DNA from: an uncultured cyanobacterium
GTDB taxonomy: Bacteria > Cyanobacteriota > Cyanobacteriia > Cyanobacteriales > CAWUOF01
DNA: 64,000 bases
Direction of reading: 5' to 3'
Assembly: GCA_963744145.1 (NCBI GenBank)
Contig: CAVUSO010000001.1
Location: 1,934,831-1,998,830, forward strand
Shown: positions 6,296 to 59,070 of the stretch, piece by piece
Position numbering within the stretch: the stretch's first letter is position 1
Layout: each line of letters starts with the position of its first letter
Position numbers and translations under genes: made by a program
Notes under the pieces: model-generated
What the model saw: only the letters and a program-made list of their open reading frames with translations
The model's database searches: none
What the model was told of the DNA's origin: nothing

Positions 6296-6493
6296 TCCTA
6301 AGAAGACTCCATCCCTTAGTAGGGAAAGATTAAGGAAGCGTAAATAGGGGGTGAAAGATTATTGACATTAATTTCCAAGCAAAATAAAGTATAATTTTAT
6401 TTCTGCAAAAGGAACATTCCAGATTTTCAACTTTTTTATATCTGTATAATCGACAAAATCGAGGATATTTTAAAGCCCATCGCCGCTCATCTG

Positions 6494-7480: not shown

Positions 7481-7579
7481 TTTGAAATAATCGGTAGTGT
7501 CTGTCCTAGTTATTTTTAATTTCTTGTTTAATCTGCTTCTGGAGGGCGATCGCCTGTATAATTCAGAAATATCTAGCTG

Positions 7580-11247: not shown

Positions 11248-11278
11248 ATAAAAATTTTATAAACAATCGGAGAAAATC

Positions 11279-11998: not shown

Positions 11999-12582
11999 TT
12001 ACTGTACCTAATAATCAAAAACTCTCACCTGATGAATATTTTGCATGGGAATCACAGCAAGAAATCCGTTATGAATATATTGATGGTAAGGTATTTGCAA
12101 TGGTAGGAGTAACGATAGCCCATAGCACGATCGCTACTAATTTGATTGCTTTACTGCGACCACATTTACGGGGACGAAATTGTCGAGTATTGGGGTCAGA
12201 TGCGAAAGTGGGTATTTCTCCAAGTGGTGAATTTTTCTATCCAGATTTATTGGTAACTTGTGACGATCGCGATCGCAATTTTGCTAAGGCGGTATTTTAT
12301 CCAAAGCTGATTATTGAGGTATTATCCCCTAGCACAGAAGCATACAATCGCGGTGGTAAGTTTGCGCGTTATCGACAGTTAGCAAGTTTGAACGAATATG
12401 TGTTAGTTAGCTCGGAAAGTATTGGGGTTGAGGTATTTCGGCTTAATGAGCGGAGCAAGTGGGAATTAACACCCTTTGGGGTTGGGGATTTGGTGCAGTT
12501 TGCTAGTATTGAATTTGAATGCGCGATCGCTGCAATTTATGAAGACGTGGATTTTTTAGAATACAGCGGATTCGGTGGCTGA
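11995..12582 (+). CDS. Uma2-family (DUF820) PD-(D/E)xK endonuclease
   Basis: YEYIDGKVFAMVG, YPDLLV, PKLIIEVLSPSTEAYNRGGKFARYRQLASLNEYVLV are Uma2 hallmarks. Confidence 0.75.
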   Translation: MITVPNNQKLSPDEYFAWESQQEIRYEYIDGKVFAMVGVTIAHSTIATNLIALLRPHLRGRNCRVLGSDAKVGISPSGEFFYPDLLVTCDDRDRNFAKAVFYPKLIIEVLSPSTEAYNRGGKFARYRQLASLNEYVLVSSESIGVEVFRLNERSKWELTPFGVGDLVQFASIEFECAIAAIYEDVDFLEYSGFGG

Positions 12583-12892
12583 TGAAGTACAGTAAGATTT
12601 GGCATGAATGGTGGGACAGGCATCTTGCCTGTCAGAGATTGTAAGTGATCTGTGTTGGTTGGGCAGGTTTATGATAGTTATCTGTTTGGAGCAGAATTGA
12701 TTGGTGAACCTGCCCCTACAAATCCTGTTAATCTTGTAATCCTCTCATCCTGATCGATTTTTTGGTAAATCCCTGTAGGGGCGGGTTCACCGATGAACTT
12801 GCCACACACAAATAACCCTTGTGCCGAGCGCAGTCGAGGTATTAATGAACCCGCCCTGCCCCACAGATCACCTTGATGAACTTCATAAACCT
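12583..12892 (+). repeat. MITE-like dispersed repeat (GGTGAACCCGCCCCTAC core family), about 310 bp copy with nested inverted repeats
   Basis: Contains ggtgaacctgcccctacaaatcc ... ctgtaggggcgggttcacc and gatctgtgttggttgggcaggtttatgat ... aacccgccctgccccacagatcacc pairs. Direct copy at about 17895-18160, inverted partial copy at about 14014-14165. Confidence 0.7.
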
Positions 12893-12922
12893 GGAATAGG
12901 CTGTAACCATTGAAGCTGTACA

Positions 12923-13369
12923 TTATTTAGTTTCTGTAAGCAATTGTTCTAGAGTCTCAGGAAAATCACCATTAAAAACCATGCGAGAGAATACATTGTA
13001 ACAGTCATTTTTATCGCCTTCTTTGCGTGGAAATCCTAGCCAAAGAATAATCAAAACCTTACGATCATCTGCTTCAAAAGCTCGAAAAAATAAACGGTAG
13101 CGATCGCTTAGTCCCATACCCTTTAAGCGTCCGTAATGTCTGAGGGAACCTTTGAGGGCAAATTGAGGTGCAAAGGGATCAAGAACTATTTTCTCTTTGA
13201 TCCCTATCATCACTGCGGCTAGTAATTTAACGGTGGGATGTTTGACAAATTCTTCCCTAGGGAGACTGAGTTTTAGTTGGTTAACTTGTGCCTTTAGTTG
13301 TCGTCTTTGTTCCCCAAATAAGTTGTCATGGAAGTAGATTTCCCAGCCATTACGGACGATGACGCTCAT
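12923..13369 (-). CDS. yhaV: type II toxin, YhaV-family ribonuclease-like
   Basis: About 148 aa. 4 bp overlap with an upstream AbrB/SpoVT-type antitoxin. Size, arrangement and sequence character match PrlF/YhaV modules. Confidence 0.5.
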   Translation of the reverse strand: MSVIVRNGWEIYFHDNLFGEQRRQLKAQVNQLKLSLPREEFVKHPTVKLLAAVMIGIKEKIVLDPFAPQFALKGSLRHYGRLKGMGLSDRYRLFFRAFEADDRKVLIILWLGFPRKEGDKNDCYNVFSRMVFNGDFPETLEQLLTETK

Positions 13370-13695
13370 GGGTCAAGCTCAACTCCTGCAAGAAGTTCAT
13401 CATCTTCCTGGGCCATTGCTTCTGTATAGGCTTCTAACTTATCGCTATTTTTGAGAGCATCTTTGGTGATGAAGTCCAGAAATAAACTCAACATTAAATT
13501 ATCGTCTTCTTCTTCCTCATCTGCTTCAGGTGTAACTGGTTCAAGCTTTACCAACAAAGTATTATCAGGTAGCACTTTCACCCATCCAGTAGCATTGGCA
13601 AATTGGGGGTTGTCATGATAAAACGAGGCTGGCAATCTAAAGCCTAAAGAGTTGCCAATTTTGGCTGGTGAGAGGGTGTAGGTTTTGGAACTCAT
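13366..13695 (-). CDS. prlF: type II antitoxin, AbrB/SpoVT (PrlF-like) with acidic C-terminal tail
   Basis: N-terminal swapped-hairpin motif IGNSLGFRLPASF. Acidic C-terminus (EADEEEEDD). Overlaps the toxin start. Confidence 0.55.
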   Translation of the reverse strand: MSSKTYTLSPAKIGNSLGFRLPASFYHDNPQFANATGWVKVLPDNTLLVKLEPVTPEADEEEEDDNLMLSLFLDFITKDALKNSDKLEAYTEAMAQEDDELLAGVELDP

Positions 13696-14013
13696 ATATG
13701 TTAGTACAAATTGTAATAACGATAATGCTATACTAGCACGAAAGTTTAAGGTGGTTACAATCTAGGTATGGACAAGTTCAATCTATGAAAATTCGGGAGT
13801 TATGAGCGATCGCTATTTCTATGCTTGAAAGCTATAGACAAAATAAATATATTAAATTTTAACCATCTCCGTTAGTCAGATGGGGTGGATTCATCCATGT
13901 GATCTGTAAGGTTGGGCGGTGCAATTGTATGACCAAGGGAATAATTTCCAAACAATCAAGATTAAATTAGATGATCAGAATAGATGGTCGATAAATTTAT
14001 GATTACAATTAAC

Positions 14014-14165
14014 CAGGATTTGTAGGGGCGGGTTCACCAATTAATTTTGTGACAAACCGATCACCATTATAAACCCGCCCAACCAACACAGATCAATCAC
14101 AATCGACTTTAACTGATCGGACAGGCAAGATGCCTGTCCCACAATCTTACTGTACTTCATCAATA
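14014..14165 (-). repeat. MITE-like dispersed repeat, partial inverted copy
   Basis: tgtaggggcgggttcacc ... aaacccgcccaaccaacacagatc ... gacaggcaagatgcctgtcccacaatcttactgtacttcatca is the reverse complement of the 12583-12650/12700 segments. Confidence 0.65.
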
Positions 14166-14499
14166 TAGAAATCCGCTGTAAATCAATCAATTTCCTCTCT
14201 AATCTCATATTCACCTTGGGGATATCGCACCAATATCTCATCAGCTAAACATCCTGCTGTCTGTTCAAAAAAACTAGAAGGCCAGCCTAATTCTTCAGAA
14301 GTTTGAGGTGGAGTTTGATTGCTCAAATCGTTCATGATATTTTCTGGTAGATGATGAGCAAAATCAGGATAAATTATTATTTTACTAAATTTAACCTACT
14401 TTATAGGTCGGCACAGATTCCCATGATGCTATAGTATAGCAATTACCCAGGAAAGTCAAGGGGTAATTTCTTTTTACTTCACTTACTCGAAAATTAATT

Positions 14500-17436
14500 A
14501 TGACTAACCCTAGTTCCCAGCGTCCTCAAGTTTTTATTGAAAAAATTATGCCCGTGAAGTTACTCAACGAGCAGGTATATTACGAACATGGGGGTAATCC
14601 GTTTAAGGGTTTACATCGGTGGTATTCGCGCAAACCTTTGTCCTTTAGTCGAGCCAGTGTGTTAGCTTCCTTGTTACCTGGGGATGTGACGATCGAGGAG
14701 TTTAAATATCTGTTAGGTTTGTACCCAGAACAAGAAGGTTTAAAACCAGATCCTGATATTAAGCTGTATAAAACACCTCCTGGTAAATTGAGAATTAAAA
14801 AGGTGCAGGATTATTGTGAAAAATTGTGGGGAACTCGAACTCCTACAGTTTTAGATGCGTTTGCAGGTGGTGGGAGTATTCCCTTTGAAGCAGCAAGATA
14901 TGGGTTTAATGTATTAGCATCGGATTTGAATCCTGTTGCAGTTGTGACAATGAAAGCTGCGATGGAATATCCCCTAAAGTTTGGACCGGATTTGCAGCAG
15001 GATATTGATCAATGGGTGAAGTGGGTAGGTGATGAAGCCGAGAAACGGTTAGCTGAGTTTTTCCCTTCTTTACCTGGGGAAACTGTACAGAATTATCTGT
15101 GGGCGCATACAGTGGTTTGTCCGAATTGTGAATCGGTTGTACCTTTGAGTCCGAATTGGTGGTTATATAAACGTCCAGAAAAGCAGAATTTACATAAATG
15201 GTGTGCAGTAAAGCCAATTCCTAACATTGAGAATAAGCGGGTTGATTTTGAATTGGTGAAGGGGAAGAAGGGAAAAGGAACAACTATTCAAACTGATGAT
15301 GGGGAATATGATCCTGATACTACAACTACTATTGGTCGAGGTGTTGGTAGATGTCCTAATTGCGACAATGTGATCGAAGATGATGTAATTAAATCTCAAG
15401 CGCAATCAGGTATTTTAGGACATCAACTTTATGCAGTTGCTTATAAAAAAGGTAAAGGAAGTTTAGAATTTAGAATTCCCGAAGAATTAGATTTAGAAGG
15501 AATTGATAAATCTCAATGTTATTTAAAATCACAATTTTTGGAAATTCAAGCTAATGGTATTTTGCCTGATGTTGCAGTTACTCATGGACAAGAAACTGAA
15601 AGATTATTCTCAATTGGGATTGATAGCTGGTACAAATTCTTTAATCCACGCCAACTTTTAACACTTGTTACATATTTAGAAATTATCAATGAAGCAAAAG
15701 CACTAATTCAGACTAAATGTGAAGAAGAAAAAGAAACAGCGATCGCTAAATTAAAATCTAATCCAGAAGTAGAGGATATCCAGAGGGCGATCGCAAATAT
15801 TGAATCCTACTATCAGAATAAAATTGAGGCGATCGCCACTTATTTAGCTTTGGTATTTGATAGATGTGTTGACAGAAATTCTAGGCTTGGACATTGGCAT
15901 TCAGCTAGAGGCTATGCAGAGATAGCAATGGCTCAACATTCTCTAAATCTAAATTGGAATTATCCTGAAACTAGCGGTGCAGGTGAACTCTGGCAATCAT
16001 GCGCTGATGCCTTTATATCAGATTATCAAAATCTTTGTGCCTTATTCGGAACTAAACCAGATTCAACAGGTATTTTAGGAATAGAACAACACAATCTCAA
16101 ATCCATTCAAATTGATTCAGCATCTGCTGACAGTCTAACGCATATTCTTGATAACTCAGTAGATGCAATTATCACCGATCCACCTTATTACGCAACCATC
16201 CAATATGCGGAACTATCAGACTTTTTTTATGTCTGGCAAAAACGCACCCTCGGCGATATCTTCCCCGATCTCTTCTGGATGGAACTTACAGACAAAGATC
16301 GCGAAACTGTAGCCAATCCTTCACGCTTTCGCAACATGGGAGCATCCCCCGAAGAACTCGCCAACCAAGACTATGAAGCAAAAATGGCAATGGCATTTGC
16401 TGAATATCATCGTGTCTTACGAGAAGACGGAGTAATGACCGTGCAATTCAATCACAAAGAATCAGGAGCATGGGATACCCTAGCATATTCCTTAATTAAT
16501 GCAGGTTTCGAGATCACCGCATCATGGTCAGTCAGCACCGAAAACCCCCAAAACCTCCACCAAGCCCAAAAGAACTCCGTCGCTAGTACAGTATTACTCG
16601 TGTGCCGCAAACGCGACCCCAACGCTGAACAAGCCTGGTGGGATGACCTCCGCCCCGAAGTCTCCAACCTAGTCGAACAACGCGCCCCAGAATTTGAAGC
16701 CAATGATATTCAAGGGATTGACCTTTATCTCAGCGCCTTTGGTCCGGCCCTCAACGTCTTCTCCCGCTCCTGGCCAGTTCTTGATAGTACAGGTAACGAA
16801 GTCCGCCCCGAAGTTGCATTTGCTGAAGCTCGCAAAGCTGTTGCTAACTACCGCTTCCGCAAACTCGCTCAAACCGACACAATGGGTTTTGACCCCGTTA
16901 CCCAATGGTATTTTCTCGCTTGGGATGCTTTCCGCGCCCGCGAATTTCCCTTTGATGACGCTCGACAACTTGCCCTAGCAGTAGGTGGTTTCAATGTCGC
17001 AGACCTAGGAAAAAGCTACAAAATCCTCGACATCAAAAGCGGTACTTGTAAATTCCTCAGCCCCGAACAACGCTACAAAAAACACGCATTCTCGATCGCA
17101 GACAATGAATTTTCTGCCCGTTATCTCATTGACGGACTCCACGCGATCATTGCTATCTATCAACAAGAACAAACCATCGAACCAATCCGCCGTTTTATGA
17201 AAGCCACAGAACTAATCAGCAATGATAAGTTTATGCGAGCTTGGGAAATAGCATTAAAAGTTATCCCTCGCATCGGAGACGATCGCAAACGCATCCCCGA
17301 AGAAAAAGCCTTATTAAATTTATGGTTAGCAATGGATGAAATCAAAGCCAAAGTAGTTTATGTGCAGCAGGAATTGCTTTTAGGACCTGGACAATTGACT
17401 TTAGATTTAAAAAGTGTTATTGATGAAGATAAATAA
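14500..17436 (+). CDS. DUF1156 / COG1743 Zn-ribbon N6-adenine DNA methyltransferase (defence-associated)
   Basis: N-terminal GGNPFKGLHRWYSRKP (DUF1156 signature). Zn-ribbon CPNCES...CPNCDN. Motif IV DPPY (IITDPPYYATIQY). Confidence 0.8.
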   Translation: MTNPSSQRPQVFIEKIMPVKLLNEQVYYEHGGNPFKGLHRWYSRKPLSFSRASVLASLLPGDVTIEEFKYLLGLYPEQEGLKPDPDIKLYKTPPGKLRIKKVQDYCEKLWGTRTPTVLDAFAGGGSIPFEAARYGFNVLASDLNPVAVVTMKAAMEYPLKFGPDLQQDIDQWVKWVGDEAEKRLAEFFPSLPGETVQNYLWAHTVVCPNCESVVPLSPNWWLYKRPEKQNLHKWCAVKPIPNIENKRVDFELVKGKKGKGTTIQTDDGEYDPDTTTTIGRGVGRCPNCDNVIEDDVIKSQAQSGILGHQLYAVAYKKGKGSLEFRIPEELDLEGIDKSQCYLKSQFLEIQANGILPDVAVTHGQETERLFSIGIDSWYKFFNPRQLLTLVTYLEIINEAKALIQTKCEEEKETAIAKLKSNPEVEDIQRAIANIESYYQNKIEAIATYLALVFDRCVDRNSRLGHWHSARGYAEIAMAQHSLNLNWNYPETSGAGELWQSCADAFISDYQNLCALFGTKPDSTGILGIEQHNLKSIQIDSASADSLTHILDNSVDAIITDPPYYATIQYAELSDFFYVWQKRTLGDIFPDLFWMELTDKDRETVANPSRFRNMGASPEELANQDYEAKMAMAFAEYHRVLREDGVMTVQFNHKESGAWDTLAYSLINAGFEITASWSVSTENPQNLHQAQKNSVASTVLLVCRKRDPNAEQAWWDDLRPEVSNLVEQRAPEFEANDIQGIDLYLSAFGPALNVFSRSWPVLDSTGNEVRPEVAFAEARKAVANYRFRKLAQTDTMGFDPVTQWYFLAWDAFRAREFPFDDARQLALAVGGFNVADLGKSYKILDIKSGTCKFLSPEQRYKKHAFSIADNEFSARYLIDGLHAIIAIYQQEQTIEPIRRFMKATELISNDKFMRAWEIALKVIPRIGDDRKRIPEEKALLNLWLAMDEIKAKVVYVQQELLLGPGQLTLDLKSVIDEDK

Positions 17437-17450
17437 GTGAAGCTAAAATT

Positions 17451-17774
17451 ATGAAAATTAAAGGTATTAAACGCGGTATCATGATTGAATTATTTGAAGA
17501 AATCGATATTCCTGATGGGATGGAAGTGATGGTTGAAATTCAAAATAGTCATCCTCTTGCAGGACTAAGTAAAGAAGAAATTCAAAAACGGATCAATAAA
17601 GTAGCAGGAGTCTGGAAAGACGATCCAGAAATTGAGCAAATCTTTGCAGAAATAAATCAAGAACCTTTGGAAATTGAGCGATCGGCTACAACCATCTCGC
17701 AACGAATGAAGCAATTTGCCCAAGATGGTATTGATCTAGATGCTAAAGAAGGCTTAACACAATTGAGAGAATAA
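17451..17774 (+). CDS. hypothetical small protein downstream of the MTase
   Basis: ORF 14 nt after the MTase stop. A partial duplicate of its 5' end (MKIKGIK...) follows at about 17769-17885. Confidence 0.35.
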   Translation: MKIKGIKRGIMIELFEEIDIPDGMEVMVEIQNSHPLAGLSKEEIQKRINKVAGVWKDDPEIEQIFAEINQEPLEIERSATTISQRMKQFAQDGIDLDAKEGLTQLRE

Positions 17775-17894
17775 AATCATGAAAATCAAAGGTATTAAAC
17801 AGGGTGTAACAGCGGTAGATCGTGGCAACCCAAACGCGATCGCGCAATTTAGTCATAAAACTGAATTACCACAAAAATACAGCGGATGACCCGT

Positions 17895-18160
17895 TGATGA
17901 AGTACAGTAAGATTTGGCGCTAATAGCGATAAGTTAAAGTCAATTGTGATTGATCTGTGTTGGTTGGGCGGGTTTATGATGTTGATCTATTTGTGTCAGA
18001 ATTAACTGGTGAACCCGCCCCTACAAATCCTGGTTTATTGTCCTCATAAATTCATCGACAATACATTTTTATGAGCTAGTAGGGGCGGGTTCACCGCTGA
18101 ATTTGCCACACACAAATAACTTTAATAAACCCGCCCAACCTCACAGATAACCTTGATGAA
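17895..18160 (+). repeat. MITE-like dispersed repeat (same family as 12583-12892)
   Basis: tgatgaagtacagtaagatttgg ... gatctgtgttggttgggcgggtttatgat ... ggtgaacccgcccctacaaatcctgg ... gtaggggcgggttcaccg ... aacccgcccaacctcacagataacc. Confidence 0.7.
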
Positions 18161-18300
18161 AACTACCCCATCTTACATCACAGACAACACTGCTATACTT
18201 CATAAATAGGTCATACGCTAGATCTCATCCAGATTGAGAGTCTTTAAAATGTCACAAGGCACATCAAAGATAACGATGCTGGACTTTTAAGGTATTTTTT

Positions 18301-21300
18301 ATGAAAAAATTGCGCGATCGCTATTGGAAAATCGGTTATGGTAGTGATGAAGATAACCTAATCGTTGATTTTTATATCCCGGCTCTTGAATGTGCCCTCC
18401 AATACGATCGCAAAGCCGGATTTTTTAATAGTACCATACTCAGTCGCGTCGCCAGAGGATTAGGAGCATTATTAGCAAATCAAGGACGAATGCGCTTAAT
18501 TATGGGTTGTCAGTTTTCTCCTGAAGACTTACAAGCGGTTCAACAAGGTTACGCATTACGAGAAACCCTAACTCATCGACTAGATCAAGAACTTACTCCA
18601 CCTGTCAACTTTGCCCAGCTCAAACATTTTGAAATCCTCAGTTGGTTGATTCAAAATGAATATCTCGATATTCGCATTGCAATTCCCCTCAAACCTAATG
18701 GTAATCCTGAATCCTCAGAATTGGTATTAGATCCAAAGCATTTATTTCACGAAAAAGTAGGCATTATTTCCGATGTAAATGGCGATCGCCTAGCTTTTAA
18801 TGGTTCCAATAATGAATCAATCGGTGGATGGCAATCTAACCTAGAATCATTTCATGTATTTTTTTCCTGGGATGGTGGTAGCGATTTACAAAGAGTACAA
18901 CATGAATGCGATCGCTTTGAGCGTCTTTGGAATGATGAACTTCCCAATGTGCGAGTATTTGAAATTCCTACAGCAGTAAAACAAAAACTATTAAATTATA
19001 CCCCAAACCAAAAACCCGACTGGAATCCGCAAGCAGAATTTAATACCAGCCCCATCACTTATTTAGAAACAATAAATGAGTTCCAAATCTCTGAAGAAGA
19101 ACTACAAAAAGAACGAGAACAATTTACCCAACTTGCTAATATTCATCACCATCCTGGTTGTCTAGACTTCTCAGTTAAATCAATTCCCATCAAACCTTGG
19201 GCACATCAACTAAAAATCTTGCGACGGATAGCAGCAGAGTTTCCCCGTAATGCTTTAATTGCTGATGAAGTAGGTTTAGGTAAAACCATTGAAACCGGTT
19301 TAATATTGCGTTACTTGCTGCTCTCGAAAAAAGCAACGCGAGTGTTAATTTTAGTACCAGCTAGTGTACAACCTCAGTGGCAAGAAGAAATGCGGGAAAA
19401 ATTTAACTTGCACTTCTGGTCCTATGGCAAAAATGAACTGGTTGATCCGTACCAACAATCAGTCGCGATCGCCGGAAATCTTTGGAATCAGAAAAACCTG
19501 ATCCTTGCATCTAGTCATCTAGTCAGACGCAAAGAACGAATGCAAGAATTACTAAACTCTGAAGCATGGGATTTAATCGTTTTAGATGAAGCACATCACG
19601 CAAGAAGAAAAAGCCCTCAAAATCACAAAGATACTCCCAACCGTCTACTTGAACTAATGGAGCGTCTGAGAACAAATACTCAAGCTTTGCTACTCCTTTC
19701 TGCAACACCAATGCAAATTGATGCGATCGAAATGTTTGATTTAATCAAGTTACTTGGTTTAAAAGGTCATTGGGAATTTCCTGATAATTTTTGTCATTAT
19801 TTCGCCACTCTATCTGAATCACCTAATAAAGATATGCTCAACTTTTGGCAAACCATGTCTACAGATTATTTTGATCATGGTGGTCAGCCTTGTAGTAAAA
19901 TTCAGAAAGGATTAGAAACTAGCGATCGCCTGTTATTTTATCAACTTGAGGATATTTGGCGCAATGGTCAGAAAATAACTAATCCTCAGAAATATCTAGC
20001 CGATGATAATTTTATCAGTGCATCTCAAAGATTTCTGGCAACTAATACACCGATTAAAGACTTAATGTTTCGCCACACCCGCGATACATTGCGAGAATAT
20101 TTTAAACGTGGTTTATTAGCTCAAGATGTACCGATAAGAGAGGTATTTGATCATGCAATTGCTCTCGAAGCAAATCGCGAAGTTCATCTCTATATTGCTG
20201 TTAGTGATTACGTGCGACATTTTTACCGTCTCGCGCAAAAGGAAAACCGCAAAGCCCTGGGTTTTCTAATGACCCTATATCGTAAACGTCTCACCAGTTC
20301 TTTCTATGCGATCGAGAAATCATTACAACGTAGATTAGATTATTTACTTACTCAACAGGGTAGCTTATTAGGAGATGATGACTACAGCGATCTAGAAGAT
20401 GCCGATGATGCTATTATTGAAGGCTTAGAATCCTTCATGGAACCCATAGATCCAAAGGAAATTGAATATTTACAAGATTTATTGCATCAATTTGACAATA
20501 CAGGGGAAGATACCAAGCGATCAAAATTTATCAACAAATTAAGACAAGAATTCTTAGAGCGTGATAGTGCGATCATCTTTACCCAATATACCGATACAAT
20601 GGACTATTTGCGCGATATCTTAACTCAATTATATGGTTCATCAGTTGCCTGTTATTCAGGAAGGGGTGGAGAAATCAATTATGATGGTAAATGGCAAATT
20701 ATCCCCAAGGAAGAAATCAAAAGACGGTTTCGTGATGGGGAAATTAAAATCTTGCTATGTACCGAGTCAGCTAGTGAAGGGCTAAATTTACAAACTTGTG
20801 GAGTTTTATTTAATTATGATATGCCTTGGAATCCGATGCGAGTGGAGCAGCGGATCGGACGGATTGATCGGATTGGTCAAAAATTCTCTCAAGTCAGAAT
20901 CCATAATTTTTACTATGACGGAACAGTAGAAGCAAAAGTCTATCGTAAATTGCGCGATCGCATCCAAGCATTTACCACAGTAGTTGGTAATCTGCAACCC
21001 ATCCTCGCTCTTGTACCTACTTTTATTGAAAAAGCAGTAATGAGTGCCGATCCCTTAGAAGAAAATGTCTTGCTGTCGGAATTTGAGCAAACTTTGGATA
21101 TATCACCTTTACAACCTGCACTTAATGATGCTGTCGCAATGGATGTGGAAGCCGATCTTACTGAACTTCGTCAACCAATCCCATCATCTCCCTTTAATGC
21201 TGAAATAATCGAACAGGTTTTGACGCGATCGCGACTATTACAGAAAGCCGGAATTAGGTTTGAGAAGATCGCAGAAAAGCTGTGGAAATTACAATTAGAA

Positions 21301-21426
21301 GATCAATCTTATCAAGTTACCTTTTATGCCGATACTTTTGACGAACATCCATCTTTGCGATTAATGACTTTTGGTGATCCTATTTTTGAGCTCCTGTTGC
21401 ATAAACGTTTAGCGTCAGCAACCTGA
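18301..21426 (+). CDS. PLD-family nuclease domain fused to SNF2/DEAD-like helicase (defence-associated)
   Basis: HxKxxxxD motif (HEKVGIISD) at the N-terminus. Helicase motifs I (DEVGLGKTIE), II (VLDEAHHARR), III (SATPMQ) and C-terminal helicase block (LLCTESASEGLNLQ, QRIGRIDRIGQ). Confidence 0.8.
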   Translation: MKKLRDRYWKIGYGSDEDNLIVDFYIPALECALQYDRKAGFFNSTILSRVARGLGALLANQGRMRLIMGCQFSPEDLQAVQQGYALRETLTHRLDQELTPPVNFAQLKHFEILSWLIQNEYLDIRIAIPLKPNGNPESSELVLDPKHLFHEKVGIISDVNGDRLAFNGSNNESIGGWQSNLESFHVFFSWDGGSDLQRVQHECDRFERLWNDELPNVRVFEIPTAVKQKLLNYTPNQKPDWNPQAEFNTSPITYLETINEFQISEEELQKEREQFTQLANIHHHPGCLDFSVKSIPIKPWAHQLKILRRIAAEFPRNALIADEVGLGKTIETGLILRYLLLSKKATRVLILVPASVQPQWQEEMREKFNLHFWSYGKNELVDPYQQSVAIAGNLWNQKNLILASSHLVRRKERMQELLNSEAWDLIVLDEAHHARRKSPQNHKDTPNRLLELMERLRTNTQALLLLSATPMQIDAIEMFDLIKLLGLKGHWEFPDNFCHYFATLSESPNKDMLNFWQTMSTDYFDHGGQPCSKIQKGLETSDRLLFYQLEDIWRNGQKITNPQKYLADDNFISASQRFLATNTPIKDLMFRHTRDTLREYFKRGLLAQDVPIREVFDHAIALEANREVHLYIAVSDYVRHFYRLAQKENRKALGFLMTLYRKRLTSSFYAIEKSLQRRLDYLLTQQGSLLGDDDYSDLEDADDAIIEGLESFMEPIDPKEIEYLQDLLHQFDNTGEDTKRSKFINKLRQEFLERDSAIIFTQYTDTMDYLRDILTQLYGSSVACYSGRGGEINYDGKWQIIPKEEIKRRFRDGEIKILLCTESASEGLNLQTCGVLFNYDMPWNPMRVEQRIGRIDRIGQKFSQVRIHNFYYDGTVEAKVYRKLRDRIQAFTTVVGNLQPILALVPTFIEKAVMSADPLEENVLLSEFEQTLDISPLQPALNDAVAMDVEADLTELRQPIPSSPFNAEIIEQVLTRSRLLQKAGIRFEKIAEKLWKLQLEDQSYQVTFYADTFDEHPSLRLMTFGDPIFELLLHKRLASAT

Positions 21427-33552: not shown

Positions 33553-33645
33553 ACAGGGTGAGTAAAGCCAACCCCGATCGATCTATTCTGCTCCGACAAT
33601 TGGTGCAAATCCTTGACGTTGAACATTCTCTGTTACTGTTCGCGG
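33553..33645 (+). repeat. putA 3' end / downstream segment duplicated at 21427-21512
   Basis: About 85 bp near-identical direct repeat. This copy is part of the intact putA gene. Confidence 0.7.
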
Positions 33646-36558
33646 TTCTAAGAATTGCAACAAATAATCAGGACCGCCAGCTTTAGAACCAACTCCCGAT
33701 AACTTAAATCCACCAAAAGGTTGTCGAGATACGATCGCACCAGTAATCCCACGATTGATATATAGATTACCGACTTCAAATTCAGTTTGGGCTTGTTGAA
33801 TATGAGAAGGTGTGCGAGAATATAAACCACCAGTTAAAGCAAAGTTAGTGCTATTCGCGATCGCGATCGCTTCAGCAAAGTCTTTAGCTTTAATTACTGC
33901 TAAAACCGGTCCAAAAATTTCTTCCTGAGCAATCTTAGCGGTGGGTGACACATTGGTAAAAACTACCGGTCCAATAAAATAACCTGAATCTGGTGCAGGT
34001 ATTTCTACAGCTAACTCTGCTTCTTGACGACCGATTTCAATATATTCACGAATTTTTTGATGAGCATTAGCATCAATTACCGGACCGACTTGAGTGCTAG
34101 GTAACTCAGCAGCACCAATATTTAGCGATCGGGTAGCTTCTACTAAACGTTGCACAAAAGTATCATAGATTGATTCTAACACAATCACCCGTGAACAAGC
34201 GGAACATTTCTGACCACTATAACCAAATGCGGACTGAACTACTCCTGCAACTGCTTGATCTAAATCAGCACTTTCATCAACAATTATTCCATTCTTACCA
34301 CCCATTTCTGCAATTACTCGTTTCAGATGTTTCTGTCCTGGTTGTAAAATTGCTGCATCTGCATAGATCCGACAACCAACTTCTTGAGAACCAGTAAAAG
34401 TAATCATCTGTACATCAGGATGCTTGACCATATAAGCACCTACACTTGATCCTTTTCCCGGTACAAATTGAAATACTCCCGGAGGAATTCCTGCTGCTAC
34501 TAAAATATCAGCGATTTGAGCAGCAATCACTGAGGAAACTTCTGCTGGTTTGAGTAAGGTACAATTTCCTGCTACTAAAGAAGCTACTGTCATTCCCGTC
34601 GGAATTGCTAAGGGGAAATTCCAAGGAGAGATAATTAAAGAAATCCCACGGGGTTGATAGGTATAGCGATTAGTTTCTCCAGCAACATCATAATTATATC
34701 CTTGTTCTAACCGTTCCATTTCTGCTGCATAATAACGACAGAAATCGATCGCTTCGGAAACTTCCCCATCACATTCACGTAGAGGTTTACCAACTTCTAA
34801 CATCATCCAAGCACATAATTGTGCCCGTCTGGTTTCCATTATATCTCCAGCTTTTCGCAATATTTCCGCTCGTTTTTGGACGGGAGTTTTGCGCCAATTA
34901 TGAAATGCTTTTTTAGCAGCAGTAATTGCAGTTTCCGCTTGTTCGATGGAAATTAATCCAAGTTTACCAATCACTTCACTAGGATGAGAAGGATTAATTG
35001 AATCCACTGTTTGGGCGGTATTTTGGTATTCACCATCAATTAAAGGTAAATAGGTTTTCCCCAATTGCAGACGGATTTCTTGCAAAGCTTGGTGAGCTTT
35101 TTTCCGATTATTTACATCAGCATAATCTGTATCCGCAGCATTAGGAAATACTTGATGTTTTTCGTAAACTGCGTTAGGATCTTTAACAACTGGTGGTGCT
35201 AGTAATTCATCGATCGGACGTTCTTCCAAACTTTGACGCAAAAATGAGCTATTAGCCGTATTTTCTAATAAACGACGAATTAAATAACCCATTCCTGGCA
35301 GTAAATTACCATAAGGAGCATACACCCGCACCCGATGACCACAATCTACTAATCCTTTAGCAATTTTATCACCCATCCCGTATAAAACTTGCATTTCAAA
35401 TCGACGACGGGGGATATTTAGAGTTTCGGCGATCGCCATTGCTTTAGCTTGCGATCGGACATTATGACTAGCGATCGCTCCATAAAGATACTGATGATTT
35501 TCTAATAAAATCTGAGTGAGTTTCTCATAATTAGCATCAGTAGCAACTTTATCATTAAAAACTGGTTGATGCCAATCTTTTTGAGCAGATTTAATGGTTT
35601 CTTGATCCCAATATGCACCTTTAACTAAACGTACAGTTACCGGATTTCCGCGTTCTTTAGCCCAAACAATTAAATCTTGTAAATCTTTTTCTGTATCGCG
35701 CAAATATCCTTGGAGAGTCATTCCAATATCAGTGCGATCGCGAAATTCTGGTTCGAGCAGGATTTGTTTAAGAGTAGCTAGAGTTAAGTCTTTATAGCAA
35801 TATTGTTCCATATCGAAGTGAACTGCTGCTCCGACTGCTTGAGCATGACGTAATAGAATCCGGATGCGATCGCTAACTTTTGCTTGACTTCCCTGATCAT
35901 TGAGGGGATCGAATTGGGAATAAAAGGCAGTTAACTTGACAGATACTTGAACTTGTGGTATAGATTCTCCATCTGCTTGATCAATTACTGGTACAGATGA
36001 CCATTTTTTGGCAGCTTCGGCAAGTTGGGTCATCAAATCTAAGTAGCGATCGAGATAGGATTGTGCTTCCACCTCAGTAATGACAGCTTCCCCTAACAAA
36101 TCAATAGAGAAAGCCATTTTTTCTTTGCGGAGACGTTCAACAGTTTTAATCACAGCGGAAATATTTTCCCCAGCAATATACTTATGTGCTAAGGTTTCAA
36201 CTGCGGTAGCCACAGTCGTAGCAGCGACTTGACCAGGAATAGAATCAGCATGAGCAAAATTGAGTATACCTTTCAAAGCCGAAGGAAGTTCAACTTCTGC
36301 CGTCGTTAGATATTCTTGGAGATGACGGGCAATTTCAGCTTTACTACGCAAAGCAGGTAAACAATCAATAAAACGAAATAGTTGGACCCTTAGTCCTGGA
36401 TTACTCATGGCCCAAGCGAGTAATTTATCATCCCAGCGCATTTGTTCTTGTAATTGTCCGAACAGGGAGCGTTTTTTCTCCTGAGTAGCGGATAAAAGTT
36501 CTTGAGCGATTACTTGAGTTTTAGCTTCGTAGGTGCTATTTGATACTTGTACGACCAC
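33583..36558 (-). CDS. putA: bifunctional proline dehydrogenase / delta-1-pyrroline-5-carboxylate dehydrogenase (PutA, no DNA-binding domain)
   Basis: N-terminal proline dehydrogenase domain. C-terminal aldehyde dehydrogenase motifs EMGGKNGIIVDESADLD and FGYSGQKCSACSR. 991 aa. Confidence 0.85.
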   Translation of the reverse strand: MVVQVSNSTYEAKTQVIAQELLSATQEKKRSLFGQLQEQMRWDDKLLAWAMSNPGLRVQLFRFIDCLPALRSKAEIARHLQEYLTTAEVELPSALKGILNFAHADSIPGQVAATTVATAVETLAHKYIAGENISAVIKTVERLRKEKMAFSIDLLGEAVITEVEAQSYLDRYLDLMTQLAEAAKKWSSVPVIDQADGESIPQVQVSVKLTAFYSQFDPLNDQGSQAKVSDRIRILLRHAQAVGAAVHFDMEQYCYKDLTLATLKQILLEPEFRDRTDIGMTLQGYLRDTEKDLQDLIVWAKERGNPVTVRLVKGAYWDQETIKSAQKDWHQPVFNDKVATDANYEKLTQILLENHQYLYGAIASHNVRSQAKAMAIAETLNIPRRRFEMQVLYGMGDKIAKGLVDCGHRVRVYAPYGNLLPGMGYLIRRLLENTANSSFLRQSLEERPIDELLAPPVVKDPNAVYEKHQVFPNAADTDYADVNNRKKAHQALQEIRLQLGKTYLPLIDGEYQNTAQTVDSINPSHPSEVIGKLGLISIEQAETAITAAKKAFHNWRKTPVQKRAEILRKAGDIMETRRAQLCAWMMLEVGKPLRECDGEVSEAIDFCRYYAAEMERLEQGYNYDVAGETNRYTYQPRGISLIISPWNFPLAIPTGMTVASLVAGNCTLLKPAEVSSVIAAQIADILVAAGIPPGVFQFVPGKGSSVGAYMVKHPDVQMITFTGSQEVGCRIYADAAILQPGQKHLKRVIAEMGGKNGIIVDESADLDQAVAGVVQSAFGYSGQKCSACSRVIVLESIYDTFVQRLVEATRSLNIGAAELPSTQVGPVIDANAHQKIREYIEIGRQEAELAVEIPAPDSGYFIGPVVFTNVSPTAKIAQEEIFGPVLAVIKAKDFAEAIAIANSTNFALTGGLYSRTPSHIQQAQTEFEVGNLYINRGITGAIVSRQPFGGFKLSGVGSKAGGPDYLLQFLEPRTVTENVQRQGFAPIVGAE

Positions 36559-36687
36559 AGTTTTTAGACCCTCGATTGGGCAAGAGGTTGAATAAACCGA
36601 AGTGACCCAATCTCTATGTCACTTCGACTATACTATTTTAAGTGGAGAAAGTAGACTTAAAGGATGAATTTAGCAATTAGGAATTGA

Positions 36688-36810
36688 TGGCTCAAATATC
36701 AAAGGTCATACCGAGGGGTCTTTTCTCAATGATGCCCACAAGGATTTAAAAGCAGATTTTGTGATGGCGAATTCCCCTTTTAATAATAGTGACTGGGCAA
36801 TTATTGGATG
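36688..36810 (+). pseudogene. remnant of an N6-adenine DNA methyltransferase (HsdM-like motif IV region)
   Basis: Short ORF encodes ...[30 protein letters not shown], resembling the DFVLANPPFNxxxW motif IV block of type I/IIG MTases. Truncated on both sides. Confidence 0.35.
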
Positions 36811-36888
36811 AGGAGATTAAAAAGCAGTTGGCTAAGGTTGGTTTCAGTCTTGGTGATTAGTTGGTCAAGTAATGGTTAGGTCGGTTTT

Positions 36889-37116
36889 ATGTTGACTTTG
36901 CAAGAAATTATTAAGTCTATTGATAGTCTGTCTATAAACGATCAGCAATATTTATTTGAGTTTCTGCGTAAAAAGCAGGAACAGCCTAAAGCAAATAATT
37001 TCTGGGCGGGTTTACAAAAATTTAGACAGACAATTCAACGTGAGGGAATTGTTTTTACTGATGAAGATTTTGCGGATTTGCGCGATCGCAGTCCTGGGAG
37101 AGAAATCGATCTATGA
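36889..37116 (+). CDS. type II antitoxin (VapB-like, uncharacterised family)
   Basis: 75 aa ORF immediately upstream of a PIN-domain gene, with 4 nt overlap. Confidence 0.5.
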   Translation: MLTLQEIIKSIDSLSINDQQYLFEFLRKKQEQPKANNFWAGLQKFRQTIQREGIVFTDEDFADLRDRSPGREIDL

Positions 37117-37544
37117 GTTTGAAGTTTTTACTTGATACAAATATCCTCTCAGAACCATCACGTCCTATTCCTAATGCTAATGTTCTAGCCAAATTAGATA
37201 TTCATCAGTCAGAAATTGCTGTCGCTAGTGTGGTTGTGCATGAGCTTTTACATGGTTGCTTGCGTTTACCAGAGTCAAAAAGACGAGAAAATCTTTGGGA
37301 ATATATTAATGAATCAGTTTTAAATTTACCAATTCTAAGTTATGATCTACATACGGCGCAGTGGCACGCGAATGAAAGGGCGAGGTTATCGAAGATTGGT
37401 AAAACTCCTGCATTTGTGGATAGTCAGATTGCGAGTATTGCTTACAGTAATAATTTAATTTTAGTGACTAATAATGTGCCTGATTTTCAGTTTTTCGATA
37501 GTTTAAAGATTGAAAATTGGTTCGTTAGTGGTGAGGATGGCTAA
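37113..37544 (+). CDS. vapC: PIN-domain ribonuclease toxin VapC
   Basis: N-terminal LLDTNIL PIN signature. About 143 aa. Coupled to the upstream small ORF. Confidence 0.75.
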   Translation: MSLKFLLDTNILSEPSRPIPNANVLAKLDIHQSEIAVASVVVHELLHGCLRLPESKRRENLWEYINESVLNLPILSYDLHTAQWHANERARLSKIGKTPAFVDSQIASIAYSNNLILVTNNVPDFQFFDSLKIENWFVSGEDG

Positions 37545-37690
37545 ATTATGGTTGTTTTCAAGTCCGTTATTAGAATTTGCCAAACGCTGTCTGGCATTTT
37601 CGCAGGAAATATAAGCTTTATTTGTCTGACTTGCTTTCGGGCGATTGCTAGTATGTCTAATCAATTTTTGCAAGATCCATCAGGTAATTA

Positions 37691-37843
37691 ATGACAAATA
37701 AATCAATCCCACGCATAGAATATCTCCAAGTGCAAAACTACCGTGCCTTAAAAAAGGTAGAGCTTAAAGATATTAAGCCAATTAGCGTTTTTTTAGGTCC
37801 TATACCAAAACTAATGAGCGGTCAACTCCGGGTTAAGGAATAA
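37691..37843 (+). pseudogene. N-terminal fragment of an ABC/AAA_15-AAA_21-type ATPase (defence-type, truncated at Walker A)
   Basis: MTNKSIPRIEYLQVQNYRALKKVELKDIKPISVFLGP then IPKLMSG instead of NGSGKS. ORF ends after 50 codons. Confidence 0.45.
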
Positions 37844-37846
37844 CCT

Positions 37847-38083
37847 ATGACTACAACAAAACCAGAATTATTTGACATCATAGAACTTCTTGTTAATTTA
37901 CCAGAAGATAATCAAGCAATCGGCGATAAAGGAACCATTGTTGAATGCTACGACAGCGATAATTTTGAGATTGAATTTATCAATAAAAACGGTAAAGCGA
38001 TCGCATTATGTACCCTATTTTCTCAACAATTTATAGTTGTCTGGAAAGCCAGCACCAAAACTCAATCTTGTCGCAGCTATTGA
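37847..38083 (+). CDS. DUF4926-like small protein
   Basis: Pattern LPE...GDKGTIVE......FEIEF....G..IAL.TL resembles the DUF4926 family. Confidence 0.4.
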   Translation: MTTTKPELFDIIELLVNLPEDNQAIGDKGTIVECYDSDNFEIEFINKNGKAIALCTLFSQQFIVVWKASTKTQSCRSY

Positions 38084-38165
38084 AAAACGCTTTACCCATC
38101 TAGGCGATTTTGAACTACCCGAAATCACTAGAAAATAATTGCATGAGTATCTAATAAAAACCTCA

Positions 38166-38381
38166 TTACTGTTTGCCATAGAACATAAAATTAATCTCCT
38201 CTGACTCATCGTCAAAATCATCAGCAATCCAAACGCGCCCTTCCCAAGCACCTGGAGTACGTGGCTCAAGTTTTCCCTGATCACTAAGCTCCAATGGTTG
38301 ATCAAAATCATCTGAACCACAATTTAAACCCATGATCGCCGCTTCCGAAAAAATTTCCCTTAAATCATACCAATTCACCAT
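38166..38381 (-). CDS. hypothetical small acidic protein
   Basis: ORF starting at the internal Met (MVNWYDLREIF...). The annotated longer N-terminus lies inside a repeat copy. Acidic C-terminal half. Confidence 0.3.
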   Translation of the reverse strand: MVNWYDLREIFSEAAIMGLNCGSDDFDQPLELSDQGKLEPRTPGAWEGRVWIADDFDDESEEINFMFYGKQ

Positions 38382-38557
38382 GAAGATACATTGATGTATA
38401 TTGATCTGTGGGTGAGGGTGGGTTTTGATGATTAGTAGGTAAATGTCAAACATCTCGGTGAACCCGGGCGGGTTTTTCTAATTAATTGGTAAATTTCAAA
38501 AATCTGGGCGAACCCGCCCCTACTACAGAAATCCGCAAATTGAGGATAAAATTGGTA
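38368..38557 (+). repeat. left half of a MITE-like element split by IS insertion
   Basis: Identical to 58765-58957 (...gaggataaaattggtag). Continues at 40288 after the IS. Confidence 0.75.
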
Positions 38558-40290
38558 GATACTGTCTTGATTTGTCAAGGGGTAGCGATCGCCAAATTGC
38601 CTAATTAGGGTCAAAGAGTTTAGCAGATTTGAAAATCGCCAAAATATGGTTAGGGATTTTACCATTAAAGCACTAATCTCCTGGATTTTTACCTGACCCA
38701 CGCAGCCATCATCTCTCACTCATTAATGGGAGTAATGAGTGGTGAAGCATCGTGACTGTGGGCAGAAAGGCGAGCATTTTTGGCACTGGAAACCCGACGG
38801 ATTGACCCTAACTATAGAGCCACCGTTTGTTCACCCATACTGGGAATAGAAGTCAACCAGTTCCGTAGTTGTTTAAGCGAGATCCTCTCGATGCACAGTC
38901 GTCAGTTTCGTCTGTTCATCTTGGTTGAGGGATGAACATGTTCTGGTGGCGAGATTTCGCCCGCCAGATCCCATCTAGACGGGTAAAGGGGTAGCGCTCG
39001 CATAATTGGGGTCAAAAGGTGTTTGGGATTTTAAAATCCCAAACGCCAAATGTAGGAGTTTTCGCATCAGGGCTCCAACCACCTGCATTTTCACCTTGCC
39101 ACGCTCCAATAATCGCTCACTCATTGCCTTGAGTAATGGGTTATGACTCATCGCTACTACGGCGGGCATATAAGCGCGCTTTTCGCAGTCGAGTATTGCC
39201 TATACAAGACAAGCGAGTTTTACCATGAACTGAAGTTCCTGAACTCCGCTCGCAGGGATTTAACCCAACATAAGCAACTAATTGGCGGGCATTTTTATAA
39301 TCGGTAATCCGACCAATTTCAGCTAACAATACAGCCGCAGTTTGTTCGCCAATTCCCGGAATTGAAGTCAACAGCTCACGTTGTTTTTTCAAATGGGGAT
39401 GTTGGTCAAAATGGTCGCGAATTAATTGTTTGATCTCAGCTTGTTGTTGGGCGAGATATTCTAGATGCTTTCTCGTTATCAGCGCGACAGATTCGCTCTC
39501 GGTTTCGAGCCGATTCTGCTCCTGTTGCGCGATTTCGATGAAGGATTCTAGTCGTCTGAGTAGGGCTTGTAATTCCTTAACTTCCGGTGCTGTTGGTTTC
39601 CAAAATGACGGCTTCATCGCCACACAAAAACGCGCAATTAAGCCTGCATCTACCGCGTCGGTTTTCGTTCGCAGGAGTTCACTTTTGGCAAATCCTTTGA
39701 TCCGCGCTGGATTAACGATACTTACCTGATAACCAGCCTGGTAGAGGAATTCAGCTAATGCTTCCCCATAAATACTGGTCGCTTCTAAGCAAGCATGAAG
39801 TTCTACCACACCTTGACATTTGAGCCATTGTGCTAAACTTTCAAACCCTTCTAGATCATTAGTAAACTTTTTTGGTTTTGGCTTTTTCCCACAGTCCAGT
39901 TTCAATAAAACGACATGAAAGTCTTTTTTACTGATGTCTATTCCTAAGACTGTAGATGTCATAAGTTTCTCCTGATGTCGAGTTGATGGGTGAGAACTTG
40001 ACAGACATTAAACTAACCTTGTTAATACAGGCTATCTCGTGACCACGAGTGCCTTAGATACTGTCGAGTTTTCTGTGCGTCTGTCATCAGCGACTGGGAG
40101 CTTATCTACAAAACAGACTTATGAGGTCTGAGGGGCGGGCCAACTTCACCACTTGCTGATGTTCTTCAGCACACTTTCTCATCTCTACTGAGCTGAGGTC
40201 GAAAACTTTTCTAGTTTCTTTAGATTTCTCACTAATCCTTGATGTACCTGCATCTTGGTAGTCCAATTATCTGTATCCTTTAAAGATACA
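38558..40290 (-). mobile_element. IS110-family insertion sequence (about 1.7 kb) inserted into a MITE-like repeat copy; carries a partially duplicated 3' segment
   Basis: Transposase gene on the minus strand. Insertion point defined by comparison with the uninterrupted repeat at 58765-59070 (ggtag|gggcagg). 38560-38960 resembles the transposase 3' end (GQVKIQEISALMVKSL... versus GKVKMQVVGALMRKLL...). Confidence 0.7.
38975..39962 (-). pseudogene. IS110-family transposase, frameshifted (273 aa N-terminal ORF plus 64 aa C-terminal ORF)
   Basis: N-terminal DEDD_Tnp_IS110 (LGIDISKKDFHVVLL). Transposase_20 (IPGIGEQTAAVLLAEIG). C-terminal LLERGKVKMQVVGALMRKLLHLAFGILK in a different frame. Frameshift in the gcgcgc run near 39150. 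Confidence 0.75.
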
Positions 40291-40410
40291 AGGGGCAGGT
40301 TCACCAGTCAATTTTGCTACCAACAGATCACCATTATAAACCTGCCCTGACTTAACAGATCAACCTCAGATTAAGTGCAATTTCATAGTTAATTGGTATC
40401 AGCACCACCA
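40288..40410 (+). repeat. right half of the MITE-like element split by the IS
   Basis: gggcaggttcaccagtcaatttt...caacagatcaccattataaacctgccctg...tcaacctcagattaagtgcaatttcatagttaattggtatca matches 58958-59066. Confidence 0.75.
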
Positions 40411-54736: not shown

Positions 54737-54761
54737 TTAATCCTAATTTACTCGGTCAGAT

Positions 54762-54965
54762 CCATTGATGAGATTGATCTGTGGGTGGGGGTGGGTTTTT
54801 ATAATTAGTGGGTAAATTGCCAAAATCCGGGTGAACCCACCCCTACAATAATCGGCAAATTGAGGATAAAATTGATGGAAAAATATGTGATTAAATTGGT
54901 AGGGAGAGGTTCACCAATAAATTTGTTACCAACAGATAACGATCATAAACCTGTCCCGTTCTCCC
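54762..54965 (+). repeat. MITE-like dispersed repeat, divergent copy
   Basis: gatctgtgggtgggggtgggttt...ccgggtgaacccacccctacaa...gaggataaaattgatgg...gagaggttcaccaataaattt...cagataacgatcataaacctgtccc. Confidence 0.65.
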
Positions 54966-58764: not shown

Positions 58765-59070
58765 GATACCAATTCACCATGAAGATACATTGATGTATAT
58801 TGATCTGTGGGTGAGGGTGGGTTTTGATGATTAGTAGGTAAATGTCAAACATCTCGGTGAACCCGGGCGGGTTTTTCTAATTAATTGGTAAATTTCAAAA
58901 ATCTGGGCGAACCCGCCCCTACTACAGAAATCCGCAAATTGAGGATAAAATTGGTAGGGGCAGGTTCACCAGTCAATTTTACCACCAACAGATCACCATT
59001 ATAAACCTGCCCTGGCCTAACAGATCAACCTCAGATTAAGTGCAATTTCATAGTTAATTGGTATCACCTC
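58765..59070 (+). repeat. intact about 300 bp MITE-like element (reference copy; equals 38368-38557 plus 40288-40410 joined)
   Basis: Continuous identity to both flanks of the IS110 insertion. Confidence 0.8.

Follow-up and report, generated by a model that had tools for sequence, protein, structure and literature searches.

A vapBC toxin-antitoxin pair among the remnants of what is probably one decayed type I restriction-modification operon in an uncultured cyanobacterium

A 64-kb stretch of the genome of an uncultured cyanobacterium (contig CAVUSO010000001.1, assembly GCA_963744145.1; we refer to this entire stretch as the window, and window coordinates are positions within it) contains, next to putA, a locus at ~36.64-38.1 kb in which an intact vapBC toxin-antitoxin (TA) pair lies among fragments of defense genes. 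A first-pass annotation had interpreted these fragments as the leftovers of separate modules flanking a TA pair. Our analysis points instead to a single composite type I restriction-modification (R-M) operon with embedded cargo that decayed in place (36.64-38.1 kb), a reading to which we assign a probability of roughly 0.8. What is left can be accounted for without modules being gained and lost one after another, and one operon gutted by several deletions is the simplest reading. On this reading, an apparent graveyard of several defense systems resolves into one type I R-M operon with cargo, whose deletion junctions are mapped to the nucleotide and whose sole addictive component, the VapBC pair, survives.

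The loss of the R-M and ATPase genes involved at least four lesions. The first ~235 codons of hsdM have been lost; the hsdM piece that remains carries a frameshift, small indels and a change of NPPF to NSPF; an internal hsdM deletion of ~613 nt occurred at a GGG microhomology; and a further deletion, extending from just before the Walker A motif of an ATPase gene to 13 codons before the hsdS stop, produced a 50-codon chimeric open reading frame (ORF). We infer that no remnant can be functional, because they are without the AdoMet-binding region, the target-recognition domains and the P-loop.

The hsdM remnants and their intact counterparts

The locus was compared with profile libraries (Pfam, NCBIfam and PADLOC), with a set of 5.8 billion proteins, by phmmer with 1.84 billion representative sequences, and with fetched metagenome or genome loci (L-numbers, for example L082, L088 and L131) and fetched proteins (P0002-P0015). 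Loci L082 and L088, each with an intact hsdM-vapB-vapC-hsdS-hsdR operon, served as references.

The closest relatives of the window's VapC (89-90% identity; 89% for the R-M-embedded P0015 and 90% for P0014) sit in intact type I operons on seven fetched contigs, which represent two operon variants. In these operons hsdM (522-531 aa) is followed by 29 nt, vapB (75 aa), vapC (142 aa), 55 nt, hsdS and hsdR. The internal hsdM piece, hsdM tail, vapB, vapC and hsdS tail of the window are colinear with such single intact operons in order, orientation and spacing. Positions 36804-37535 correspond to L082 9691-10423 at 92% nucleotide identity, a 733-nt block that crosses the hsdM/vapB boundary and takes in the last 57 nt of hsdM, the spacer of 28-29 nt, vapB and the sequence through vapC. 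This colinearity implies that vapBC was cargo inside an R-M operon. Separate modules on either side of a TA pair are thus not what the comparison supports, since the hsdM fragment, the hsdM tail, vapBC and the hsdS tail all match one intact operon architecture.

Upstream of vapBC, two plus-strand pieces of hsdM remain: an internal remnant (36638..36797) corresponding to HsdM residues ~236-296, including motif IV, and a 3' tail (36795..36860) consisting of the last 21 codons plus the stop. The first-pass annotation had recognized a methyltransferase (MTase) motif IV fragment here, and matches in Pfam, PADLOC, the protein search and tblastn bear this out. The peptide translated from ~36691-36797 matches Pfam N6_Mtase (PF02384; E=2.6e-6; score 27.4 bits, cutoff 20.4) and PADLOC MTase_I (E=3.7e-11), shares 72-82% identity with other HsdM fragments from the 5.8-billion-protein set (lowest E 1.7e-16), and corresponds by tblastn to residues 244-296 of intact HsdM proteins. 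NCBIfam returned no match for any fragment of the locus. At the nucleotide level (blastn), 36680-36797 is 81% identical to the interior of the L082 hsdM and 36664-36797 is 76% identical to that of L088, and in pairwise alignment the decayed similarity extends back to ~36638. An hsdM remnant is therefore present at 36688, where it had been said to start, but it begins earlier, at ~36638-36664. Its description as a short ORF likewise holds in part: the frame is open and has NPPF-block homology, but it lacks a proper start codon and is not called as an ORF.

The matches to N6_Mtase and MTase_I, together with 81% nucleotide identity to an intact hsdM, establish descent from an hsdM gene. Of a full-length HsdM of ~520 aa, with its HsdM_N domain and AdoMet-binding region, only residues ~236-296 and 502-522 remain, and they are spread over three frames. 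The first frame reads RMNLAIRN and a stop; after a net loss of 2 nt near 36683, seen in the alignment along with small indels, a 45-residue stretch continues in the second; and the large deletion at the GGG microhomology joins this piece to the 3' tail, whose 19-residue stretch lies in the third. Motif IV reads NSPF in the window, versus NPPF in L082, L088 and all ten related fragments described below. All 21 residues of the tail (HsdM 502-522) are identical to those of the L082 and L088 proteins, and all but about one of its 7 nucleotide differences from L082 are synonymous. Sensitive tblastn searches of the full 64-kb window with two HsdR proteins gave no credible match.

When the HsdM fragment served as query, the word-indexed protein search yielded short fragments only. 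Ten other HsdM fragments of 54-86 aa (P0002-P0011), from unrelated contigs, are called from the same internal Met (MNLAIRGID...), and each runs into frameshifted sequence directly after NPPF. In public data, broken hsdM copies from this lineage appear to be common. The window remnant is like these type I R-M pseudogene remnants, ten of which share its internal Met, and unlike them in that each of its junctions can be placed on the layout of an intact operon.

The 50-codon ORF and the HEC-01A family

Beyond vapC, a spacer of 146 nt (37545..37690, plus strand) leads to the 50-codon ORF (37691-37843), previously described as the N-terminus of a defense ATPase that breaks at the Walker A motif. 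For most of its length this description is right. Residues 1-37 (37691..37802, plus strand) match the N-termini of ABC ATPases and end directly before the Walker A motif, NGSGKS; an exhaustive phmmer search of the 1.84 billion representatives gave 114 matches at E<1e-3, the best non-self match at 1.3e-8. Pfam AAA_15 reached only E=0.21, and PADLOC HEC-01A gave E=3.1e-7. Relatives read PRIEYLKVQNYRAL..LELK.ITPLTVFLGPNGSGKST; the window agrees through ...VFLGP and then diverges at the position of NGSGKS. The stub keeps all 13 invariant N-terminal columns of HEC-01A relatives (the PRIEYLxVxNYRAL...LGP region), and nucleotide similarity to the ATPase homologues stops at 37800-37802.

What follows is not the debris of a simply truncated ATPase, as had been supposed. 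ORF residues 38-50, IPKLMSGQLRVKE and the stop (37803..37843, plus strand), are the C-terminus of HsdS, in frame with the ATPase stub. Positions 37803-37842 are 97.5% identical to L082 11641-11680, the end of hsdS; the tail is 92% identical to L088 6860-6912, a match that continues through the stop into the ATG of the next gene; and 12 of its 13 residues are identical to HsdS residues 386-398 (tblastn). At the junction (37802/37803), GGTCCTA on the ATPase side meets TACCAAAA on the hsdS side. Judged from these alignments, the 50-codon ORF is a deletion chimera of 37 ATPase codons and the last 13 codons of hsdS in frame. The Walker A and Walker B motifs, the ABC signature and the rest of a body of ~400 aa are missing where the sequence switches to the hsdS tail, and of HsdS, with its two target-recognition domains and conserved helical regions, only those last 13 codons are left. 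A word-indexed protein search with the 50-aa ORF found nothing but the ORF itself, and an exact-sequence lookup found the same sequence on one 4.8-kb Logan contig only.

Short ORFs of this kind might be chance open frames with an accidental resemblance to motifs, a reading that could draw on the AAA_15 value of 0.21 for the ATPase stub and on the empty NCBIfam results for all fragments. Comparison of the ORFs with MTase and ATPase families in profile searches had been proposed as the check that could refute the original reading, and the similarity is significant for both fragments. The chance reading is refuted by nucleotide colinearity with intact genes, by the PADLOC values of 3.7e-11 and 3.1e-7, by the phmmer value of 1.3e-8 over 1.84 billion sequences, and by the 21/21 and 12/13 identical residues in the HsdM and HsdS tails; we give it practically no weight.

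The family to which the ATPase belonged also differs from the one first proposed, which was Gabija, Septu or PARIS. The stub scores E=0.026 for AriA and E=0.015 for AriAB, compared with 3.1e-7 for HEC-01A, and has no match to GajA or PtuA. Its full-length relatives are ~400 aa long, carry Pfam AAA_21/AAA_15 and match HEC-01A end to end, with full-length scores of E=2e-158 for HEC-01A (PADLOC PDLC04182), 1e-30 for AriA and 1e-16 for PtuA. By these profile scores the stub belongs to the HEC-01A family, whose usual partner is a DUF4276/TOPRIM protein. Of 80 loci with full-length ATPase relatives that a metagenome scan brought in, 63 had enough downstream sequence, and a DUF4276 gene (HEC-01B, E=2.5e-86) lies directly downstream of the ATPase in 52 of those 63. 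The window has no such partner at this position, the next gene being DUF4926. Type I hsd genes occur at 13 of the 80 ATPase loci, always in the order hsdM-hsdS-ATPase-DUF4276-hsdR; at one of the 13 (L131), a DUF4926 gene stands between hsdS and the HEC-01A ATPase.

Type I R-M operons often carry embedded genes, such embedding is also documented for BREX, DISARM and Hma systems, and HEC-01, an ABC ATPase with a TOPRIM protein, has been described as embedded in Hma systems (Payne et al., bioRxiv 10.1101/2024.01.29.577857). The assay of that study showed no protection against phage by HEC-01, which therefore remains a candidate system. The locus resembles these examples of 'guilt by embedding' in that its intact relatives carry vapBC between hsdM and hsdS, and in that the intact relatives of the stub are HEC-01A/HEC-01B pairs, often located between hsdS and hsdR. 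It differs from them in that the host operon is dead and so is the HEC-01 gene, with 37 ATPase codons left and the stub placed before the hsdS tail.

The surviving vapBC pair and the hsdM tail

The VapBC pair had been called intact, and so it is: vapB (36889..37116, plus strand; 75 aa) and vapC (37113..37544, plus strand; 143 aa) are both complete, in the order antitoxin then toxin, with a start/stop overlap of 4 nt (ATGA). Their products in the intact operons have 75 and 142 aa, respectively. For VapB, neither Pfam nor NCBIfam has a matching antitoxin family; the protein is 93% identical to the 75-aa product encoded between hsdM and vapC in L082 and L088; its gene starts 28-29 nt after the hsdM stop, the spacing seen in intact operons. 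VapC matches the Pfam PIN domain (E=3.6e-8, 34.5 bits against a cutoff of 23.6) and is, by homology, of the tRNA(fMet)-endonuclease type. It aligns over its full length with Shigella VapC (3TND; E=3.2e-13), its residues D8, E44 and D103 fall at the Shigella catalytic positions, and the C-terminal VTNN motif is conserved. The NCBIfam VapC match (E=3.4e-21) is under the equivalog cutoffs (75.9 versus 140; 54.1 versus 143), so that tRNA(fMet) specificity is a prediction from homology.

The pair is thus like the tRNA(fMet)-specific VapBC systems of Shigella (MvpT / 3TND), Leptospira and nontypeable Haemophilus influenzae (NTHi) in its full-length VapC alignment, acidic residues, VTNN motif and antitoxin-toxin overlap, and unlike them in that its VapB falls in no Pfam or NCBIfam antitoxin family and its VapC stays under the equivalog cutoffs. 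From homology and intactness, vapBC would still work as a type II TA system, in which VapC would cleave initiator tRNA(fMet) and VapB would neutralize VapC and autoregulate.

A tRNA-cleaving enzyme inside a type I locus has a classical precedent in PrrC, the anticodon nuclease encoded in EcoprrI (type Ic; hsdM-hsdS-prrC-hsdR). PrrC is a nuclease fused to an ABC ATPase; it cleaves tRNA-Lys, and the R-M complex itself keeps it silent. VapC would be like PrrC in being a tRNA-cleaving toxin within a type I R-M operon; it is unlike PrrC in being a PIN-domain protein with its own VapB, encoded between hsdM and hsdS. The analogy suggests that such a toxin in a type I operon could provide a back-up suicide function or an R-M-linked stabilization.

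The different fates of the cargo and its host may have a simple explanation. Deletions reaching into the TA pair would be counter-selected through addiction, by removal of the labile antitoxin, and vapBC would survive. Type I restriction requires an HsdM2S1 core, so that once hsdM or hsdS is gone the type I R-M system would be lost harmlessly.

The end point of the large hsdM deletion, ~66 nt before the hsdM stop, may also be meaningful. Stand-alone vapBC copies of ~80% identity in Nostocales and other cyanobacteria all keep a stub of 20-26 codons from the hsdM tail directly upstream of vapB (for example AQMQEAQSLDLEIKVKLAKVRFT and GAEALDLEIKIELAKVGFT, each followed by a stop), and the deletion in the window leaves this same stub. 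Such stubs lie at L089 1442-1579 and L090 131-268, in both of which the stub is called as a 45-aa gene, and at L173 ~6700-6765, L176 ~5540-5600 and L091 ~3440-3510. The copies of stub plus vapBC occupy at least four other genomic contexts: beside holA, beside a DUF3352 gene, beside a Tn7-like element and probably after a group II intron. In L091 the unit adjoins a Tn7-like tnsB/tniB/tniQ module (4450-7514), with a divergent hsdR 7 kb off, and in L175 it directly follows a group II intron reverse transcriptase (4953-6299). In a MAFFT alignment, a count by eye shows nucleotide conservation in the stub much like that in the coding regions, and on the downstream side similarity ends with the vapC stop codon. 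The hsdM-tail stub is missing from more distant relatives of VapC (71-75%).

This recurrence suggests, as a working hypothesis, that the hsdM tail is part of the vapBC unit, acting as promoter, operator or recombination handle, and the ~66-nt tail in the window may have been spared as the vapBC promoter/operator or as some other part of that unit. It is possible, and we put it forward tentatively, at less than even odds, that the functional unit in this cyanobacterial VapBC clade is the hsdM 3' tail (its last ~60-70 nt, as promoter/operator or recombination handle) plus vapB plus vapC, that the TA pair repeatedly outlives or leaves its type I R-M host operon, and that the window is an intermediate caught with more of the wreck still in place. 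Such outliving or leaving would explain why different lineages show the same stub of 20-26 codons. The stub, if it is a real regulatory or cassette structure, would provide a simple marker for TA pairs that originated inside R-M operons, as well as a testable case of a TA pair outlasting its host immune system.

Taken further, the same pattern could mean that the hsdM tail, vapB and vapC formed a mobile or recombining cassette that landed beside an unrelated decaying hsd locus, the tail and the internal hsdM fragment then coming from different genes. Consistent with this are the at least four unrelated contexts in which other cyanobacteria carry the unit and the identities to L082, which are 81% for the internal hsdM fragment versus 88-96% for the tail and vapBC. 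In the window, however, the internal fragment and the tail point the same way and meet directly at a simple junction with GGG microhomology, the hsdS tail follows downstream, oriented as expected, and the unit has no flanking transposase, integrase or terminal repeats. We regard a landed cassette as quite improbable, and return to the decay of a single operon.

The likely ancestral order would have been hsdM - vapB - vapC - (HEC-01 ATPase, probably with its DUF4276 partner) - hsdS - DUF4926 ... hsdR. We favor only modestly a position of the ATPase between vapC and hsdS within this same operon, because a stub before hsdS is absent from the 13 embedded relatives and because the 146 nt upstream of it match nothing.

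Several observations weigh against a single operon. In the window the stub precedes the hsdS tail, whereas the ATPase-DUF4276 pair follows hsdS in 13 of 13 R-M-embedded relatives, so that the order hsdM-vapBC-ATPase-hsdS has no observed intact counterpart. The 146-nt spacer has neither nucleotide nor protein similarity to ~180 fetched loci and belongs to no Rfam family. A putA-based scan of 80 loci did not recover a close relative with an intact version of exactly this locus. A promoter scan of 36.5-38.6 kb gave 6 promoter-like sites, against 6.5 expected by chance, and no convincing sigma-70 promoter within the hsdM tail. Relative to the intact-operon copies, dN/dS is 0.19-0.23 for vapB and 0.17-0.19 for vapC, and the dead hsdM pieces show equally low values. 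The low ratios of vapBC therefore record history before decay, not present-day selection, and dN/dS was rejected as uninformative for current selection on the pair. Finally, dS versus L082 is ~0.9-1.4 in the hsdM pieces (an estimate based on few sites), far above the 0.12-0.32 of vapB and vapC, which suggests that hsdM (36683-36860) and vapBC (36889-37535) may have different histories, through mosaic ancestry, recombination or cassette exchange.

Some of these points would sit comfortably with a defense hotspot beside putA that took up several independent modules in turn (a type I/IIG MTase system, a stand-alone VapBC and an ABC-ATPase system), of which all but the TA pair eroded. The placement of the ATPase stub upstream of the hsdS tail and the sharp dS difference between the hsdM pieces and vapBC both fit separate histories; an IS110 element and dispersed repeats adjoin the locus, and an Hma defense system lies 15-29 kb away. 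Against such a succession stand the order, orientation and spacing found in intact single operons and the 733-nt block of 92% identity that spans the hsdM/vapB boundary, and a separate insertion would be needed for the ATPase at most. A hotspot also finds no comparative support, as related genomes share no synteny here: none of the 80 related putA loci scanned shares any neighbor gene with the window on either side. We consider successive modules unlikely, if somewhat less so than a landed cassette, and retain the single decayed operon.

Judged by sequence, the remnants lack every functional hallmark of the families concerned (the AdoMet region, NPPF, the target-recognition domains, the P-loop, the DUF4276 partner and hsdR) and retain the marks of descent. 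The locus represents ordinary genome decay, neatly documented, which would not surprise a specialist, yet it changes how remnants are counted: fragments of this kind should not be tallied as independent acquisitions in analyses of 'defense hotspots'.

Neighboring genes and mobile DNA

The locus follows putA (33583-36558, minus strand), whose product has 76-81% amino acid identity to proteins of Oscillatoria, Kamptonema, Argonema and Microcoleus in a PutA-based scan of contigs that covered the 80 cyanobacterial loci; the host is a filamentous cyanobacterium. After putA come, on the plus strand, the hsdM pieces in their three frames, vapB, vapC, the 146-nt spacer, the 50-codon ORF and a DUF4926 gene; beyond these lie a minus-strand partial DUF2281/VapB-like ORF and then repeat and IS110 DNA.

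The DUF4926 gene (37847..38083, plus strand; Pfam DUF4926 E=9.7e-23, full model coverage) is intact, which corrects the earlier view that only the TA pair had been left whole. It begins 4 nt past the hsdS stop, the same distance that separates hsdR from the hsdS stop in L088, and is probably a further piece of embedded cargo. A 33-codon frame at 38037-38138 overlaps its 3' end (...KLNLVAAIEKRFTHLGDFELPEITRK) and matched nothing. The orphan antitoxin-type ORF (38166..38381, minus strand) has partial matches to Pfam DUF2281 (E=2e-4) and to NCBIfam TA_VapB (E=3.9e-6, below cutoff), is without a toxin partner, and has its first codons inside a repeat that starts at 38367. This ORF and the 33-codon frame may be further TA debris.

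Mobile DNA just downstream, also proposed by the first-pass annotation, is present: an IS110-family insertion of 1.73 kb splits a dispersed repeat of ~300 nt (38367..40401, with repeat halves at 38367-38558 and 40291-40401). The first half is 100% identical to 58766-58957 and the second 96% identical to 58956-59066, and an uninterrupted copy of the repeat is found at 58766-59066. Sub-repeats occur at about 600-680, 12661-12717, 14024-14096, 17950-18022 and 54758-54956. The IS110 transposase matches Pfam DEDD_Tnp_IS110 and Transposase_20 and is apparently frameshifted, with a 273-aa ORF at 39141-39962 and a 64-aa ORF at 38975-39169. A partial second IS copy adjoins it (38557-38874 versus 38966-39389), representing a diverged IS end (~70% identical), and internal direct repeats are present in this stretch.

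An apparently intact Hma-type defense system occupies 7580-21426, 15-29 kb from the locus. It comprises an HmaC/DUF499 ATPase (7580-10819; PADLOC E=6e-103), an HmaB/DUF1156 methylase (14500-17436; E=3e-78) and an SNF2/PLD-type helicase (18301-21426). Between these subunits are DUF7680 at 10819-11247, two Uma2 genes at 11279-12582 and two small minus-strand genes at 12923-13695.

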